Origin: Chitinophagales bacterium
Lineage (GTDB): Bacteria; Bacteroidota; Bacteroidia; Chitinophagales; BACL12
Direction: 5' to 3'
Assembly: GCA_020636645.1 (NCBI GenBank)
Contig: JACJXO010000002.1
Coordinates: forward strand, 106,465 to 170,464
DNA length: 64,000 nucleotides
The notes under the pieces were generated by a model, which searched no databases, was not told the DNA's origin, and was given only the letters and a program-made list of their open reading frames with translations. This document shows, piece after piece, positions 3,560 through 43,549 of this stretch (the stretch's first letter is position 1; each line of letters begins with the position of its first letter). The position numbers and the translations under genes were made by a program.

Positions 3560-5538
3560 TAGAAAAATATTTTAATTTCTACCATAGTTTCCTGGCCCTG
3601 AAATGCATCATCGGCAAAACTGGCATCTTCAAATGCGAACCATCGGTGACGCAGATACAGGCGGGCATTAAATCCCAGATCGATATCCAGGCCGGCGCCA
3701 TATCCTGTACCGGTCTGATTTCGGGGTCTTCTGCTTTCTTCATCAATATCTGTCAGATAGTTGCCCAGGGTTCTTTCATAGCCTGCATAGCCAGAAATCA
3801 GTATCCGGTCGCCCAGTTCCAGATAGGCTTCCAGTTCATTGGCATATTGCCTGATGTAAGCTTCTTCGCTGGTAACCGTAAAGGCTGAGAACGATCGTTG
3901 TACTGAAGAATAGTATCCCAGATAGAACAGGTAAATATTCTTGCCGAATACTTTGGAATGGTATTTTACCTGCGGTTCAAATACGCTGAAGAACTTCTTG
4001 TTGATGACCACTCCGGAACTGTCGTCAAAGAGGTTTACGGTCTCATAGACATCGCGGTATATGACCGAATAACGCTGGTAAGGCCCCACTTCTGCAGGAA
4101 ACAGCCAGCGCCACATGCGGCTTCTGGTCAGTTGATTGACAGGATGTCCATAAGTGATGACCGAAGAAATGGGTTCCAGTTCTGCCTGTGCAGCCAGACC
4201 GATATTGAATTTAAAATCACCCAGGGTGTATTCCATATTCAGATCTGCTCCCTGTCGGTTATTAGACATCTGACCGATGCGCAGCATAGAACTGCCGAAT
4301 GGCTGCAATACCGCAGTGCTGCCTATTGTTCCGGCAGGTAATGCTGCAGGATTGTACTCTCGGATAGCAGTATTGAGAAAAATGGAATTGTCATTGATGA
4401 CCTTCGGACTGATATAGAAATAGTGCAGGCTCCATCGGGGCAATGTCTTCTTCGCAGGTGTGGTCAGGGTAGCGGATATCAGCCCTCCGTTGCCGGCATC
4501 TTGCACCGGACTGAAGTAATTTCCCAGTCCACCTTCGGCCAGCAATGAAAATCCTTTCATATGCACCATCCACTCCAGGGTGGTGAGGTGAAATCCTACC
4601 TTTTCTTCCGACAGACTATCGGCCCAGGTGGTAGCATGCAAACTGTTGATGCTGATGTACTGTCCGGGTCCTGTTTTCTTTTGCAGTTTTCCCCCATAAG
4701 TATAACTTGGCCAGGGACTGAAGCCTCCGTTGAATTCAGATTTACCCACCAGGGCAGTAAAGGAAAGGTCTTTGGGAAGGCCGTTTCCATCCAGTATCAA
4801 ACCCTTGAATGCCCGGTTTCCCCAACGGGTATCCTGGTTGATACCACCTTCGTTGAAATAGGTCTCGTAGCGGGCCGGCAAAGAAGCTCCTGCCGGATCC
4901 CATGGATTGCGTTCAAACAGTGTAAAGCGATTATATCCCCTGAAAGAAGCCATGGTCAGGTCAGACAAACGCACCCAGTGAATGCCGCCTGCCCGCAAGG
5001 TAAATGTGCCGGAGCGGGTTTCCTGGATACCGGTAAAGTTCAGCCCGAGATTCAGGTTCATCTGTCCGCCAAGGCGTGTTCCGCTTAATGGATCCTGAAA
5101 AGAGGGACGAAGTGAATCCGGCACTTGTGCCCCATAGGTGGTGCCGATGGCACCATTGAGAAACTGAAAGGCAAACACATCAAATGAAAATGAAGTATGC
5201 GGAGCAGGTTTCCCGGAGATGGTGAGTTGCAGATTTGGAAGCTGGCTGTCATCACCAATGAAGAGACTGGCTGGCAATACAGTATCATTAATAACAGGAT
5301 TCAGCACATAGGGAAGGTCATGTGTGGTATAGGTGGCAAAGAAGCGGTAAAATCCTGACACAGAGATCTTTCTGAGCGGCGATGGTTCTTCTGCAGGACG
5401 GATGCCCAATGCAGTTTCCGTACTGTCTTCTACCTGTGCTACAGCTGTGTTGGCAGCCATCATACAGATCAGTATCAGCCACATGATAAAGCTGCCTGAT
5501 ACAAACATTTTCAGATTAGACGTACGGGTTCCTGACAT
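3559..5538 (-). CDS. Outer-membrane beta-barrel protein (porin-like), family not recognised
   Basis: 659 aa with the signal peptide ...MMAANTAVAQ and the C-terminus ...ETMVEIKIFF. It is co-oriented with and coupled to its neighbours. Confidence 0.6.
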   Translation of the reverse strand: MSGTRTSNLKMFVSGSFIMWLILICMMAANTAVAQVEDSTETALGIRPAEEPSPLRKISVSGFYRFFATYTTHDLPYVLNPVINDTVLPASLFIGDDSQLPNLQLTISGKPAPHTSFSFDVFAFQFLNGAIGTTYGAQVPDSLRPSFQDPLSGTRLGGQMNLNLGLNFTGIQETRSGTFTLRAGGIHWVRLSDLTMASFRGYNRFTLFERNPWDPAGASLPARYETYFNEGGINQDTRWGNRAFKGLILDGNGLPKDLSFTALVGKSEFNGGFSPWPSYTYGGKLQKKTGPGQYISINSLHATTWADSLSEEKVGFHLTTLEWMVHMKGFSLLAEGGLGNYFSPVQDAGNGGLISATLTTPAKKTLPRWSLHYFYISPKVINDNSIFLNTAIREYNPAALPAGTIGSTAVLQPFGSSMLRIGQMSNNRQGADLNMEYTLGDFKFNIGLAAQAELEPISSVITYGHPVNQLTRSRMWRWLFPAEVGPYQRYSVIYRDVYETVNLFDDSSGVVINKKFFSVFEPQVKYHSKVFGKNIYLFYLGYYSSVQRSFSAFTVTSEEAYIRQYANELEAYLELGDRILISGYAGYERTLGNYLTDIDEESRRPRNQTGTGYGAGLDIDLGFNARLYLRHRWFAFEDASFADDAFQGQETMVEIKIFF

Positions 5539-37381: not shown

Positions 37382-38890
37382 CTACTGTATCACCATCAGT
37401 TTCGTATCCACCACTTTTCCATCCACCAGCAATGTATAGCTATAAGTACCTGCTGCCAATTGTGTAGCATCTACTTCTAAAACACCATTGCCCAGTTTTA
37501 CATCAGCCATGAACAGGCTTACCCCGGCAGCATCGGCTATTTTTATAATTGCCTGTTCGGCAGTTTCGGGTACAAAATAGCGTATGGAGGTACTACCGGT
37601 AAAAGGGTTGGGTCTGTTCTGAGAAAGGGTGGCCTGCGTTTGGTTTGAGGCTACAAAGATCCGTTGTACCTCATCCGTTGTTGACTCATTCATCTGAATA
37701 CCTTGTTGACCAAGCAGGGCTTCCAGTCTGGAAATGCGATCTTCCAGATTTGTATTCTCTGCATCCAGTTCCTGCACTGCTTTTACCAGCGGTACCACAA
37801 AGGTGGCATAGCGCAGGCCCAGGAGGCGACCGCTGGCATCTACGCCGCTGAACTCATACCCCAGGTCTTCTGCCGCAGCAGCCACTTCCTGGGCTATGAA
37901 TCCGGAAAAGGCCTGTTCTTCAATGTCGTATTTGCCGGTCCACGTAGCGGTATCTACTCTGCCCATCAGCTGGTTCTGGGTAGTGATGTTGTAGTGGTAG
38001 GTAACCGGCCGCAGCTGATTGATGAAATCCAGCCCCGGCACATTCTCTTCCACCTGCTCTTTGATGCGGGCATCGCTGTACACGGTCCAGTCCACCTCAC
38101 CACCGATGCTGGAGACGCTGGAGTTGCCGATTAGAACTTTATTGGAAGCATCTACTACAGCTATATATCCAACAGCTATTGAGTTCTCAAAATCATTACC
38201 AGTTGTAGTAGCATTGTAGCCAATTCCAATATTATAATTACCTGTTTTATTGACATTTAGAGCCAATGCTCCTATTGCTGTATTACTATTCCCCAGTGTA
38301 TTATTTGATAAACTTGCACGACCTATCGCAGTATTTTCATTCCCCTTTGTATTATCACTCATTGCACTGGAACCTATCGCAGTATTCTCGTTTCCTATCT
38401 TATTGCTCAGCATAGCATTAGAACCGATGGAAACGTTATTATCACCACTCTTATTAGAAAAAAGCGAATAATTTCCAATAGCTACATTGCTTTCTCCAAA
38501 GTAGTTGTATTTAAGAGACAAGTATCCAACGGCAACATTTTGTGATCCGGACTTGTTGTACCGCATAGCCTCTGCTCCAATGGCTGTGTTATATGATCCA
38601 ATTAAGTTGTCAGTCAAAACAAGCCATCCAATAGCAGTATTGTAATCACCATCAAGATTGCTGGTAAGTACTCCTTCCCCAAACCCGATCCCGGCAGGTC
38701 CATTGTAAATAGTTGAGGTTCCTAACCCAATACTGGCATGCCCATCAGGAGAATTGATGTCCAGCAGAAGTTCCGGTGTTGTGGTACCAATACCCACAAA
38801 TCCGGAGTCGGGAAAGATATTCTGTGCGCTGGCCGGGTTAATGACAGCTGCCAGAAACGCCATGCAGATCAGTTGAATAAGGTTTTTCAT
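37382..38890 (-). CDS. Fibre-like protein: YadA-head/tail-fibre-type NTAIG repeats + Peptidase_S74 intramolecular chaperone domain + T9SS CTD
   Basis: 502 aa with a signal peptide. It has about 10 repeats of G..NTAIG..A...N. The S74 signature is SDARIKEQVEENVPGLDFINQLRPVTYHY...GFIAQEV...LRYATFVVPLVKAVQEL. The CTD reads NRPNPFTGSTSIRY.... Confidence 0.8.
   Translation of the reverse strand: MKNLIQLICMAFLAAVINPASAQNIFPDSGFVGIGTTTPELLLDINSPDGHASIGLGTSTIYNGPAGIGFGEGVLTSNLDGDYNTAIGWLVLTDNLIGSYNTAIGAEAMRYNKSGSQNVAVGYLSLKYNYFGESNVAIGNYSLFSNKSGDNNVSIGSNAMLSNKIGNENTAIGSSAMSDNTKGNENTAIGRASLSNNTLGNSNTAIGALALNVNKTGNYNIGIGYNATTTGNDFENSIAVGYIAVVDASNKVLIGNSSVSSIGGEVDWTVYSDARIKEQVEENVPGLDFINQLRPVTYHYNITTQNQLMGRVDTATWTGKYDIEEQAFSGFIAQEVAAAAEDLGYEFSGVDASGRLLGLRYATFVVPLVKAVQELDAENTNLEDRISRLEALLGQQGIQMNESTTDEVQRIFVASNQTQATLSQNRPNPFTGSTSIRYFVPETAEQAIIKIADAAGVSLFMADVKLGNGVLEVDATQLAAGTYSYTLLVDGKVVDTKLMVIQ
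37706..38077 (-). other. Peptidase_S74 / endosialidase-chaperone-like domain (aa 272-395)
   Basis: It starts at the conserved S-D-x-R-x-K and ends in a coiled coil, NLEDRISRLEALL. Confidence 0.7.
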
Positions 38891-38912
38891 TTTGCTTGAT
38901 TTATAAGAATAT

Positions 38913-40841
38913 TTAAAAATAAGTTATCACGATGACGACCCCGTTGGCGCCATCACCCCCGGCACCACTGGTATGTCCTGAGCCGGCAGCACCACCACCG
39001 CCACCTCCTGCGCCGTAGCTGGCTCCGTTGCCCCCGCTTCCGGCTGTTGCGGAAGCACTGGCAGCGCCCCCACCACCACCGGAGCCCAGGTAATTACCGC
39101 TCTCTGCTGTTCCATTACCACCACTGCCCCCGGAAGTACCTCCGCTGCCTGCTGCCGGAGAACTATTCATGAACTGGATATTGCCCCCGCCGTCACCACC
39201 CGAATAGGCGGTTCCGCCACTGCTGATACCACCTCCGGCTCCTCCACCCAGGCTAGCGTAGTTGCTGTTGCCCGCATCATCGCCCTGGTCTGCCGGGTCA
39301 GCACTGGCACCAGAGCCTCCCTGAGACTTCAGCCCCGGACCACCTGACCCTCCGGCTGCCCCTGTCGAGGAGCCCCCGTTCCCACCGTTGCCTCCGCTTG
39401 CCTTCAGGTAATCGCCAAAAAAGGATTTGGTGCCATTGCCACCGTCCTTTCCGTCGCCGGAACTTACGGCAGCTCCTCCTGTTCCACCGGCACCCGCATA
39501 GGCCAGTACATTGGCATCCAGGTTGGCAGCGTTGAAGGTCATTTCACTCATGCCTCCGGCGCCTCCTCCCGATCCTCCGGACATGTCACCGGTAACCCCA
39601 CCACTGCCTCCGCCACCACCACCGCCAATACAGATGACTGTCACCGAAACAGCCCCGGTAGGTTTAGCCCACAGAGTAGTTGTTCCTGTAAACACCTGTA
39701 CGTCGGTTACCACAGTCTCCCAGTCTAAGTTGCCTGACCCATCGGTCTGCAATACCTGGTTGGCATCGCCATCATCATCCGGCCAGGTGTAGCCAACGTC
39801 ATTGATACGTACCAGGTCGCCGGTGGAACTGACCTGAAATTCATCTCCGGATCCTACATTGAATGTATTTGACAATGTTGAACCGCTATTGCCGACACTG
39901 AATTTACCAGAACTCAAATCGCCATATAATAGATTTCCAATATTTAGCCTGTTGCTTAAATCCAAACCGGTTGATGGATTTACTGAAATATTGTTACCGA
40001 TTACAATATTATTATTACCTGATTGGCTTGGAAAGCTACCTTTCCCAGATTCCGAGCCAACAAAAATGTTATTGCTCCCGTCGCTAATAGATGAGCCAGC
40101 TGAATATCCAATTACTGTATTTTCAACACCTTCTGTTAGGCCTATAACTGAATTATAACCTATTGCAACATTATAATCACCTGAAGTTACATTACCCAAC
40201 ACACCAGTAGTAGTTGAAGTACCGCCGATAGCAATGTTGCCATCACCGGTCACCTGCGGGCTATCTGAATTATTATAGTAGGTATTTTGGCCAATTCCAA
40301 TATTTGATGATCCGGTTGTAATCAACTCACCAGCTCTGCTACCGATCATTGTATTCTTGCCGCCGCTGGTAATATTGCTGGATGAGTACCATCCAACCGA
40401 AGTATTGTGCCCTGCAGAACCAGTGACTGTTTCTAAGGCTTTATATCCGATACCCACCGTTCCATGATTGGAGCTCGAAGCTGCATCCCCTGCATATTCA
40501 CCAAGAAATAAACCATCATACGAACCTCCTGTAACGTGCAGAAATTTATTGCTGTTTAGTTTCAGCATATCTACATTGCTGTATCCTTCTGCTTCATCAA
40601 AGTGAATGACCTTTTCCAGATAAATTTCTGACCAGCTGGAATCTTCAGACCCTAAATTCCGATCTGCATCAGGCAAAAGATGTGAATTGATATTAGTTGT
40701 TACGTCCAGATTGCTCAGGTCTTCACAGGCGGGATCACATGTCTGTGCAAACATGCGGTTACCACACATGGATGTGAGCAACAAACAAACGATCAGTTTG
40801 TAAAATGGGGGGGGGGGGCTTAACAGGAAATTAACCTTCAT
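38913..40841 (-). CDS. Secreted fibre-like protein with degenerate NxxIG repeats and a ~260-aa glycine-rich C-terminal domain; no T9SS CTD
   Basis: 642 aa. The signal peptide contains the C12-encoded PPPP. YTWPDDDGDANQVLQTDGSGNLDWE is followed by WAKPTGAVSVTVICIGGGGGGGSGG.... It ends in ...GANGVVIVITYF. Confidence 0.75.
   Translation of the reverse strand: MKVNFLLSPPPPFYKLIVCLLLTSMCGNRMFAQTCDPACEDLSNLDVTTNINSHLLPDADRNLGSEDSSWSEIYLEKVIHFDEAEGYSNVDMLKLNSNKFLHVTGGSYDGLFLGEYAGDAASSSNHGTVGIGYKALETVTGSAGHNTSVGWYSSSNITSGGKNTMIGSRAGELITTGSSNIGIGQNTYYNNSDSPQVTGDGNIAIGGTSTTTGVLGNVTSGDYNVAIGYNSVIGLTEGVENTVIGYSAGSSISDGSNNIFVGSESGKGSFPSQSGNNNIVIGNNISVNPSTGLDLSNRLNIGNLLYGDLSSGKFSVGNSGSTLSNTFNVGSGDEFQVSSTGDLVRINDVGYTWPDDDGDANQVLQTDGSGNLDWETVVTDVQVFTGTTTLWAKPTGAVSVTVICIGGGGGGGSGGVTGDMSGGSGGGAGGMSEMTFNAANLDANVLAYAGAGGTGGAAVSSGDGKDGGNGTKSFFGDYLKASGGNGGNGGSSTGAAGGSGGPGLKSQGGSGASADPADQGDDAGNSNYASLGGGAGGGISSGGTAYSGGDGGGNIQFMNSSPAAGSGGTSGGSGGNGTAESGNYLGSGGGGGAASASATAGSGGNGASYGAGGGGGGAAGSGHTSGAGGDGANGVVIVITYF
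40807..40818 (-). repeat. Homopolymer C12 (G12 on the plus strand) within codons 8-12 of the fibre gene
   Basis: Counted directly as 12 consecutive G at 40807-40818. A tract of 11 or 13 gives a premature stop within 4 or 16 codons (my translation). Confidence 0.9.
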
Positions 40842-41002
40842 GGTCTGATTTTTTGATGTGGAACAATGAAGGCAGAATGGGGCATGTAGGGAAGTTACAA
40901 GTTGTTTTTGGAAAGTACAAATTACTTAGATACAGCACTTGGACTATGTCAAGTATGAGAGCTCTTCTTATGGCGGGGTTATTTTGTTTCAGCGTTGTTA
41001 CT

Positions 41003-41049
41003 GGCCACAGGACGTGGCGTGATGCAGGAGATTCCTGTTATCAGTCTGC
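41003..41049 (+). repeat. Right copy of the direct repeat flanking the fibre cassette
   Basis: GGCCACAGGACGTGGCGTGATGC ... TATCAGTCTGC; see 37269-37308. Confidence 0.35.
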
Positions 41050-41228
41050 AGTCATTAATCCTGAGTCGGCTTCAGGAATAACGTGTTCTTTAGAAGGTGT
41101 TGTTCGACTATCGGGAAGTCATGCCAACCGCCAGGAAACTAAGTCTCATTACCCAATACTCCCTACTCAATACCCGATACTAACCATCGTCCTTCCTCCT
41201 TTCACAATTTCCTCCTTACTTTACCCAT

Positions 41229-42386
41229 ATGCAATCGCCGATCATCATTCGTTCCAAATTACCCAACACAGGCATCAGCATTTTCGCCAGAATGACCGCT
41301 CTGGCCAATCAGCACGGAGCCATCAACCTGGCCCAGGGGTTTCCAGATTTTCCCCCGCCAAAAAGACTCGTTTCACTCGTGGCTGATGCCATGCGAAAAG
41401 GCCACAACCAGTATGCACCCATGCCGGGTGTGCCCGATCTGCGGGAAGCCATTGCAGACAAGACTAAAGACACTTATAAGTGCAAAGTGGATGCAGAAAA
41501 GGAAGTGACCGTAACAGCAGGGGCCACTTACGGACTGTTCGCTGCATTCCAGGCCTTGCTGCATGAAGGCGATGAGGTACTGGTGTTCGAACCGGCCTAC
41601 GATTCATATGTGCCCGGTATCCAGCTGGCAGGCGCAGAACCTGTTTTTGTGGAACTGCATGCACCGGATTATAGCATCGACTGGGAAGGCGTCAAGAAAA
41701 AGATCAATGCCAGAACAAGGGCCATTCTGATCAACACCCCCCACAATCCGTCCGGAACCTGCTGGACGAAAAATGATCTCCTTCAGCTTGAAAAGATCGT
41801 GGTGGGAACCGACATCATCGTCATCAGCGATGAAGTGTATGAACACATCACCTTCGATGATGGCCGGCATGAAAGCGTGCTGCGCTATCCGAAGCTGGCA
41901 CAGCAGAGCATCGTCATATCCTCCTTCGGCAAAACCTATCACAACACAGGTTGGAAGATGGGTTATGTGATCGCCAATGAATCCATCACCAAAGAGTTCA
42001 GGGCAGTGCATCAGTTCCTGGTCTTCAGTGTGAACACACCTATGCAGTATGCGGTGGCGCAGTTCATCCGCGAAGCGCCGGAACATTTTCAGGATCTGCC
42101 ACAATTCTATCAGCGCAAACGGGATTTTTTCCTGGAAGCCGTAAAAGATTCCCGGTTCTCCTTCACGCCCGCATCAGGCACCTATTTTCAACTGCTCGAC
42201 TACAGTGCCATCTCAGATGAACAGGATACGGTCTTTGCAGAACGGATCACCGCAGAGTTTGGCGTAGCTGCCATACCTTTGAGTCCGTTCTACCGCGGCC
42301 CGGTAGGCGACAGGGTGCTGCGTTTCTGTTTTGCCAAAAGCGAAAAGACCCTGGAAAAAGCGGCCGCTATCTTATGCAGGATCTGA
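41229..42386 (+). CDS. Class I/II aminotransferase (YbdL-type methionine/glutamine transaminase)
   Basis: Motifs are SKLPNTGISIFARMTALANQHGAINLAQGFPDF and the PLP-Lys context SSFGKTY. It is 385 aa. Confidence 0.8.
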   Translation: MQSPIIIRSKLPNTGISIFARMTALANQHGAINLAQGFPDFPPPKRLVSLVADAMRKGHNQYAPMPGVPDLREAIADKTKDTYKCKVDAEKEVTVTAGATYGLFAAFQALLHEGDEVLVFEPAYDSYVPGIQLAGAEPVFVELHAPDYSIDWEGVKKKINARTRAILINTPHNPSGTCWTKNDLLQLEKIVVGTDIIVISDEVYEHITFDDGRHESVLRYPKLAQQSIVISSFGKTYHNTGWKMGYVIANESITKEFRAVHQFLVFSVNTPMQYAVAQFIREAPEHFQDLPQFYQRKRDFFLEAVKDSRFSFTPASGTYFQLLDYSAISDEQDTVFAERITAEFGVAAIPLSPFYRGPVGDRVLRFCFAKSEKTLEKAAAILCRI

Positions 42387-43156: not shown

Positions 43157-43549
43157 CTAATTCCTGGAAGGAAAGATCCCGGATGTGCATATGATATAGT
43201 GCATTCCCAATCCCTTGACACCATTGGCGTCTCTGCCCAGCTTCACGGATTCACCCACATCAAGGGTGTTGGCTCCATTGGATAGACCTACACCTACCGG
43301 AACCGCACCACGCAGGTCAGGTAGCGCAAACGTGGTTCGTCCATCGCCGCCATAATAGGTACCGATGATGGAGAATAAAGCGGAGTATTCTGAGATGTTC
43401 AGTATCTGACCATCGCAGAATGCCCAGCCGCGTGGGGCAAAACTTCCTGCAAATAAACGAACCTCGCCCAGCATGGCGTCCTGGGCCTTTGCACCACCTA
43501 CGAAAAGTGTGGTGACCAGTGCCATGAGTAACAGATGTTTTTTCATCAT
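43157..43549 (-). CDS. Secreted phage-tail-collar-domain protein (MdpB-like)
   Basis: 130 aa with a signal peptide. GEVRLFAGSFAPRGWAFCDGQILNISEYSALFSIIGTYYGGDGRTTFALPDLRG is the Collar domain signature. Confidence 0.8.
   Translation of the reverse strand: MMKKHLLLMALVTTLFVGGAKAQDAMLGEVRLFAGSFAPRGWAFCDGQILNISEYSALFSIIGTYYGGDGRTTFALPDLRGAVPVGVGLSNGANTLDVGESVKLGRDANGVKGLGMHYIICTSGIFPSRN

Follow-up and report, generated by a model that had tools for sequence, protein, structure and literature searches.

The DNA analysed here is a stretch of 64,000 nucleotides (64 kb, hereafter the window) from a contig of an uncultured Chitinophagales bacterium. It carries two adjacent genes for fibre-like proteins, and the subject of this work is a run of twelve cytosines (C12) among the first codons of the upstream gene. 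In a preliminary description of the window this run was put forward as a candidate slipped-strand phase-variation switch. The proposal is supported by length polymorphism of the run at two loci and by the position of the start codon upstream of it. The features of the locus are as follows.

38913..40841, minus strand: gene 1, 642 amino acids (aa), with a signal peptide, a shaft of NxxIG-type repeats and a C-terminal Gly_rich_2 domain (residues 388-638).
40807..40818, minus strand (G12 on the plus strand): C12 homopolymer, the proposed slipped-strand switch, spanning codon 8 position 3 to codon 12 position 2 (S8-P9-P10-P11-P12).
40746..40841, minus strand: predicted Sec signal peptide, codons 1-32, from hydropathy, a helix in the AlphaFold (AF2) model and the alignment of homologues.
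40820..40833, minus strand: two TAA triplets read from the sequence (40831-40833 and 40820-40822), closing both alternative frames just 5' of the tract.
40759..40795, minus strand: off-frame stops 3' of the tract, TGA at 40793-40795 (tract lengths 8, 11, 14) and TAA at 40759-40761 (lengths 10, 13, 16).
38891..38912, minus strand: A/T-rich spacer of 22 nt between genes 1 and 2, from the ends of their open reading frames (ORFs); the spacer of the paralogous locus has 18 nt.
37382..38890, minus strand: gene 2, 502 aa, with a signal peptide, a repeat shaft like that of gene 1, a Peptidase_S74 chaperone domain and a probable C-terminal sorting domain (CTD) of the type IX secretion system (T9SS).

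Gene 1 matches Gly_rich_2 (PF21722) with 30.3 bits against a gathering cut-off of 24.3, and also tail spike, tail fibre and minor tail families of PHROG. Its AlphaFold model has a predicted local distance difference test (pLDDT) score of 64 overall and of about 85 for residues 380-642. The modelled C-terminal domain matches the tail tip of the mycobacteriophage Bxb1 (9d93_Q, E 1e-8) as well as the fibre of cyanophage Pam3 (7ypx). The gene 1 product is similar to a phage tail fibre. No meaningful match came from sequence searches of the PDB, and no recognisable T9SS CTD was found in gene 1 itself. In gene 2 the Peptidase_S74 domain (PF13884) is matched with 40.2 bits against a cut-off of 22 (E 4e-10) and the tail spike family phrog_4636 with E 4e-63, while the T9SS CTD matches are sub-threshold (Por_Secre_tail, 18.9 against 27 bits; TIGR04183, 21.1 against 23). 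The S74 gene had been placed 22 nt downstream of gene 1 before, and this is correct, as it starts at 38890 and the stop of gene 1 lies at 38913. No promoter-like element was seen in the 22-nt spacer, nor the hexamer TAACTT in the 18-nt spacer of the paralogue. Since the spacer leaves no room for a separate promoter, co-transcription of the two genes is likely from their arrangement. The fibres are presumably exposed at the cell surface.

Read on the minus strand from 40841 downward, gene 1 begins with ATG AAG GTT AAT TTC CTG TTA AGC CCC CCC CCC CCA TTT TAC, and the tract starts 23 nt into the 642-aa ORF. Re-reading of the sequence agrees with the earlier reading of twelve consecutive G on the plus strand as S-P-P-P-P at codons 8-12. 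The tract is the sole G/C homopolymer of at least 7 bases within the window. Runs of G or C of at least 12 bases are expected in 64 kb about 0.004 times under an order 0 model and about 0.008 times under a first-order Markov model, and the length of the C12 tract is far beyond chance. Runs of G or C of at least 6 bases are about four-fold depleted in the window (5 observed against about 20 expected), unlike A/T runs, which show no depletion. An index of a public collection has the identical 642-aa product in 150 blocks, and all 24 of the 24 contigs read encode it; because the product recurs in 150 blocks, C12 is not a private error of one assembly.

The coding consequences of a change in length were computed. 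Tract lengths of 9, 12 and 15 keep the ORF in frame, while lengths of 10, 11, 13 and 14 lead to a stop within 14-28 codons. With 11 C the product is MKVNFLLSPPPHFTN, closed by the TGA at 40793-40795, and with 13 C it is MKVNFLLSPPPPILQTDRLFVAHIHVW, a 27-residue peptide closed by the TAA at 40759-40761. Both translations had been given correctly in the preliminary description, but its statement that the observed length alone keeps the ORF open has to be amended, as lengths 9 and 15 are also in frame. An off-frame length is not rescuable by an upstream start, because TAA triplets stand in both alternative frames 5' of the tract. The in-frame starts that remain in off-frame variants are TTG at codons 20 and 21 and ATG at codons 25 and 30. 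From these starts the hydropathy over nine residues reaches at most 0.23, whereas residues 16-24 of the full protein score 2.77. These residues, 3' of the tract, form the only hydrophobic core in the N-terminus of gene 1, none being left from the M25 or M30 starts, and the AlphaFold model has a helix at residues 14-27.

The predicted signal peptide consists of a long n-region, MKVNFLLSPPPPFYK, which contains the tract, an h-region LIVCLLLTS (residues 16-24, 40770-40796) and a c-region ending in RMFA, followed by Q33. Cleavage would take place before Q33, judging from the A-x-A-like motif and the Q at +1, a residue common at this position of signal-peptide cleavage sites in Bacteroidota. A reading of LTSMC as a lipoprotein signal was rejected; position -1 is occupied by M (by I in the paralogue), and in the alignment of homologues A/G-Q stands at the cleavage site.

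An N-terminus of the form MK(V/M)(N/K)(F/L)(L/M/V)L is found in frame in five diverged lineages, two of them without the homopolymer; the homologues compared share 51-61% identity. It reads MKVNFLLS-PPPP-FYKLIVCLLL in the window, MKVNLMLS-PPP-FYKLIVCLLL in the paralogue, MKMKLMLN-GGG-IYIVILTLF in homologue L021, MKLLLKKRGGIYMVILTLF in L022 and MKMNLVLIGARVYMVILILF in L034. The last two are without a homopolymer and unambiguously in frame with the upstream ATG. By this alignment translation truly starts at the ATG 5' of the tract. The earlier argument that the upstream ATG is needed, the hydrophobic core being 3' of the tract, agrees with the homologues, which keep the N-terminus in frame and have the core only downstream. 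The opposite case, a real start downstream of the tract, had been named as evidence that would count against a switch, and neither the in-frame N-terminus of five lineages nor the hydropathy of the alternative starts points that way. A look-up of the variant starting at TTG-20 returned no record.

Heritable tract-length polymorphism was observed at two loci, paralogues of each other, where the surrounding DNA was identical or nearly so; the changes, of +/-1 and -2 bases, were recurrent and arose on clonal backgrounds at both. Variants of the locus described above (locus 1) were sought by means of the products expected from frameshifted alleles, i.e., those with M25 and M30 starts, and nine contigs were returned. 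Three of them, L014, L017 and L019, have C12 with a different start call. The 26-kb contig L018 (ERZ27309224) and the 24-kb contig L020 (ERZ28656000), from two different assembly projects, have C11; the missing C is the sole indel, with 0 single-nucleotide polymorphisms (SNPs) relative to the window, over 7.8 kb and 5.7 kb, respectively. In L016 (Logan SRR6747750) the tract is C10, and the two C's are the only difference from the window over 2.3 kb. L015 (GCA_003448375.1) has C9, begins at a contig end and has the 5' codons of the paralogue. In this contig (DMAC01000109.1, positions 1-110) a paralogue-type 5' end with TTGATG codons and C9 is joined to a locus-1 body, and L015 may be either a chimeric assembly across a repeat or a real recombinant. 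Public assemblies of locus 1 have mostly C12. An exact-pattern scan of GTDB species genomes for the flanks of the tract gave no match, and a profile-based scan gave only an unrelated match in Saccharibacteria.

A paralogous fibre locus (locus 2) encodes a 484-aa protein, P0005, which is 53% identical to gene 1, begins with MKVNLMLSPPPFYK and is followed by its own S74 gene. The context, between a PQQ beta-propeller gene and HSP20, is unlike that of locus 1, and both loci occur in the same metagenome-assembled genome (MAG; locus tags P5512_04225 and P5512_12140). Two groups were found within the 90% cluster of locus 2. The first comprises C9 read-through alleles with calls of 484, 479 or 499 aa in about 136 contigs, and the second comprises 456-aa calls from the equivalent of M30, where nine of the ten contigs retrieved have C10. 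Together with JGI contig L003, found by pattern search, and NCBI MAG contig L035, C10 at locus 2 is represented by 11 contigs with two 5' haplotypes. HapA has C10 in all eight contigs with DNA examined, and occurs as C9 in product P0132 (one contig, protein sequence only). HapB has mostly C9, and C10 in 3 of 14 contigs (L027, L029 and L035). Both haplotypes of locus 2 occur in both length states, which is the one indirect hint of reversible switching. The association between tract length and haplotype gave p = 0.001 in Fisher's test on what is a biased sample. Among 20 locus-2 contigs, compared over 4.3 kb and 3-119 SNPs apart, 1-nt indels were found only in the coding C tract and in a C5/C6 tract of the leader. 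The C10 contigs come from ENA (MEGAHIT k141 contigs, WANG18-1 scaffolds and a 'NODE_' contig), from JGI and from an NCBI MAG, and C9 and C10 were both obtained from the same projects and assemblers. Because length tracks haplotype, and not project or assembler, we regard the lengths as inherited alleles and not as chance errors of the consensus. One MAG, GCA_035447165.1, combines an in-frame locus 1 (PPPP, ON) with an out-of-frame locus 2 (C10, OFF), which means that the loci hold independent states. The preliminary description had named a tract length invariant across strains as grounds for abandoning the switch, and what was found across assemblies is C12, C11 and C10 on otherwise identical DNA at locus 1 and C9 and C10 at the paralogue.

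The DNA of the two loci is near-identical from about -50 to about +115 and divergent beyond. The near-identical part, about 170 nt covering the leader and the first 38 or so codons, corresponds to about 40727-40891 of the window (minus strand) and to about 3950-4115 of contig L004, while the bodies are about 53% identical. HapA of locus 2 is a mosaic that carries the locus-1 codons TTCCTG, and the S74 genes of the two loci are 58% identical overall and about 98% identical over residues 250-385. This distribution of identity suggests gene conversion between the paralogues. The leader has a short C tract of its own (CATG-Cn-TTCTGCC; 40879-40882 of the window, minus strand, about 3956-3961 of L004, and L023), with C4 at locus 1, C5 in hapA and C6 in hapB. 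The C5 form puts an upstream ATG in frame with the main ATG and gives rise to the 499-aa calls (P0128, P0132 and P0134). Compensation of C5 plus C10 in hapA for C6 plus C9 in hapB by way of this ATG was considered and rejected, as a TAA just 5' of the tract closes that frame. The start annotations of both genes conflict, with 642, 618 or 613 aa at locus 1 and 499, 484, 479, 456 or 441 aa at the paralogue, partly because tract length alters the starts that are usable by a gene caller. For annotation this matters in practice, as six different starts or lengths were assigned to the two genes by gene callers, varying with the length of the tract.

More distant comparisons place the tract in an evolutionary frame. 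Homologue L021, with 59% identity, has G9 on the coding strand at the same codons, encoding GGG instead of PPP, between homologous flanks (TGTTAA-tract-ATTTA). What remains of the tract in L022 and L034 is G-rich but interrupted, GCGTGGAGGG and GGGGCGAGGG. A second, word-indexed homologue search with an N-terminal profile returned two proteins only, including P0135 of L034. When the whole library was searched with a profile, 44,001 proteins proved to have the shaft domain, most of them giant repeat proteins. These tell little about the tract, except that in about ten more distant relatives, similar in size, the signal peptides are ordinary and lack runs of P or G. From this distribution the G:C homopolymer at this position is a derived feature of a narrow clade, decayed in some lineages. 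Because the tract is present as either base (C for proline, G for glycine), it is indifferent to the encoded amino acid. On comparison of the homologues, this is the pattern expected of contingency tracts and unexpected of a polyproline motif with a role at the protein level. In L021 an ATG overlaps the G9 tract (4022-4035, AAATGGGGGGGGG), and G10 would bring this second start into the frame of the body, by which two of three length classes might give a product. On the same contig gene 1 and the S74 gene are split into several ORFs, by either sequencing frameshifts or decay.

We consider it probable that C12 is a slipped-strand translational ON/OFF phase-variation switch of a two-gene surface-fibre operon. 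Slipped-strand mispairing at replication, the presumed mechanism, would add or remove single C:G pairs. At lengths 9, 12 and 15 only the number of prolines would change, in a tolerant n-region, and the gene would be ON. At other lengths translation would end after 14-28 codons, restarts would lack a signal peptide and no fibre would be secreted, which is the OFF state. OFF alleles would probably also silence the downstream S74/T9SS gene by polarity. The changes in length would be frequent and reversible, and phage, predators or adhesion trade-offs are candidates for the selective agent. The C10 alleles might be slightly leaky, CCC-C being a +1 shift-prone context for tRNA-Pro (PMC7577736, PMC4519876). 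The locus has the marks of simple sequence repeat (SSR) contingency genes, namely an uninterrupted run of about 8-9 bases or more inside the ORF and close to its 5' end, early stops without a functional restart, and out-of-frame lengths among near-identical genomes.

The variation could also be that of a non-adaptive hypermutable hotspot, in which the frameshifts are loss-of-function polymorphisms and strain-fixed pseudogenes of dispensable fibre genes. Such an origin fits hapA, which with C10 in 8/8 contigs examined looks like a fixed lineage state, as well as the minority of OFF states overall and the L021 homologue locus broken into several ORFs. It fits less well with the in-frame 5' end of hapA (P0132), with hapB as both C9 and C10, or with OFF alleles that have no other frameshift. 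Locus 1, moreover, lost one or two bases on a 0-SNP background, which points to recent events that happened more than once. G/C runs have been purged from the rest of the genome, yet a long one stands at these codons in both paralogues and also, as G9, in the homologue of 59% identity. We regard a mere hotspot as unlikely. Still less probable is an artefact of sequencing or assembly that conceals a stable C12 (C9 in the paralogue) encoding prolines. Short-read indel errors do increase in long G/C homopolymers, few locus-1 contigs deviate, L015 and L016 start from contig ends that fall within the 5' region common to both loci, and L015 has the look of a chimera. However, C10 of the paralogue was found in 11 contigs of varied origin and is correlated with haplotype and not with project, the same projects having yielded C9 too, and the same C11 occurs in the long and well-embedded contigs L018 and L020 (26 and 24 kb) of two projects.

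Action at the level of RNA or the ribosome, by transcriptional slippage, +1 frameshifting on CCC-C or polyproline stalling dependent on elongation factor P (EF-P), appears very improbable. The sequence itself invites the idea, as PPPP is a classic EF-P-dependent stall motif. CCC-C, moreover, is prone to +1 shifts (PMC7577736, PMC4519876). Recoding is nevertheless unneeded where the main genomic state at both loci is already in frame; the G9 homologue encodes GGG, relatives without the run are in frame, and variation in length is seen directly in DNA. A gene with programmed recoding was rejected on similar grounds, the predominant state at both loci and the homologues without a tract being in frame. 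An inverton would have inverted repeats of about 15-30 nt flanking the promoter and usually an invertase nearby, and this candidate was rejected as well, since only inverted repeats of 10-12 nt at chance level were found in 40600-41400 and the neighbours are RecQ, ManC, an aminotransferase and a CN hydrolase. Several findings weigh against the ON/OFF switch itself. The OFF consensus is a minority, with about 3 contigs at locus 1 against the ON product in 150 blocks and 11 contigs against about 136 at locus 2, in counts that may include the same sample from more than one archive. The few short-read contigs with C11 or C10 at locus 1 may still owe something to consensus error at G/C homopolymers of 10-12 nt. 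C10 in nearly all of hapA is also compatible with a frameshift fixed in a strain rather than with rapid switching, and the surface exposure of the fibres is something that we infer.

A wider proposal is made more tentatively, its chances being in our view slightly short of even. The two loci may form a small 'phasome' of a non-pathogenic Chitinophagales. About 170 nt of 5' sequence, made up of the leader, the start codon, the signal-peptide codons and the G:C homopolymer, would act as a portable unit, spread to at least two fibre operons, probably by gene conversion, and toggling each of them independently. The tract would be kept for its mutability and not for its coding. Such an SSR contingency system would be the first described for fibres associated with the T9SS in environmental Bacteroidota. 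It would be readable directly from public metagenome assemblies, with escape from phage or predators or an adhesion trade-off as a plausible role. If the switch at C12 is real, SSR-based bet-hedging extends to environmental Chitinophagales and acts on surface fibres built from phage tail-fibre modules, and the ON and OFF states could be tracked in ordinary metagenome time series.

Phase variation by homopolymers has been studied mostly in host-adapted pathogens, while the textbook mechanism in Bacteroidota is promoter inversion. Among genes with genic poly-G or poly-C the closest analogue is pilC of Neisseria, to be seen together with pglA, lgtA and nalP. The likeness consists in a genic G/C run of at least 9 bases, situated towards the 5' end, in a product that belongs (here presumably) to a surface structure, in ON/OFF control by frame shift (here proposed), and in two paralogous copies with independent states. 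The pilC tract reportedly lies in the region coding for the signal peptide, like the present one. Its length range has been catalogued as G(9-20) (PMC5953494). The difference is that pilC belongs to a host-restricted proteobacterial pathogen and encodes a pilus protein, whereas the present gene is from an uncultured environmental Chitinophagales, and encodes a phage-tail-fibre-like protein beside an S74/T9SS gene. In Campylobacter and Helicobacter many surface genes have genic G/C runs that vary among near-identical genomes (PMC6321876, PMC2823697). The type of evidence, comparison of tract lengths across genomes, is the same as here, but those phasomes have dozens of tracts per genome, against one in this 64-kb window, where G/C runs are otherwise depleted. 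In Bordetella fim the poly-C switch is located in the promoter. A variable promoter poly-C likewise controls the surface protein Opc of Neisseria (opc; PMC3960869). In both, promoter spacing and transcription are affected, whereas the present tract lies 23 nt into the ORF, where it is the reading frame that a change of length affects.

The 5' poly(A) of inlA in Listeria monocytogenes, which was frameshifted more than once, in separate lineages (Orsi et al. 2010, PMC2831843), is similar in being a homopolymer in the first few codons of a gene for a secreted surface protein, a frameshift leaving a peptide of few residues. It is a tract of 7 bases, against the much longer poly(C) here, and the same survey (PMC2831843), which describes a general bias of homopolymeric tracts towards the 5' end, found A/T and not G/C tracts to be over-represented. 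Within the phylum, promoter inversion of genes for surface structures in Bacteroidales is described in reviews (PMC12632263). Stochastic ON/OFF control of surface structures would be common to both, but here the proposed switch is a frameshift inside an ORF, and the promoter region is without bracketing inverted repeats. No paper that connects type IX secretion with homopolymers and phase variation came up in the literature searches; they gave only a passing mention, for adhesins of Ornithobacterium hominis, of a 'putative phase variation mechanism' (PMC13183296). A mutational on/off switch of this kind is hardly documented in Bacteroidota. The mechanism is a textbook one, and what is unusual is the host clade, the phage-fibre-like cargo, the 5' region common to paralogues and the interchange of C and G.

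Upstream of gene 1 the following elements were noted.

40842..40897, minus strand: 5' leader common to the paralogous locus, containing C4 at 40879-40882 and TAACTT at 40892-40897.
40892-40897, minus strand: TAACTT in the window; the element is at 3944 in L004, 3968 in L021, 218 in L022 and 105 in L034.

The hexamer TAACTT, usually after TTG, is found 33-57 nt upstream of the start in five of five homologous genes, and from this conserved position it may be a promoter element. The strict Bacteroidota motif TAnnTTTG was not found within 400 nt of either gene. A hairpin at the start codon (CCUUCAU...AUGAAGG, 40835-40872, minus strand), kept in the paralogue, was rejected as a regulator, being no better than shuffled sequences (z = -0.9 in the window and +0.8 in the paralogue). 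An Rfam scan of 37-42 kb gave one match at chance level only.

The neighbours of the fibre operon are RecQ, ManC, a methionine aminotransferase and a CN hydrolase. A prophage was considered and rejected, the genes forming a chromosomal two-gene operon amid housekeeping neighbours. A scan of viral contigs for the 3' flank of the tract gave 0 matches. A small ORF two genes from the fibre operon, also in a housekeeping context (43157-43549 of the window, minus strand), encodes 130 aa, or 122 aa as called in some contigs. Its N-terminus is like a signal peptide, and it has a phage tail-collar domain (PF07484) and tail matches in PHROG.

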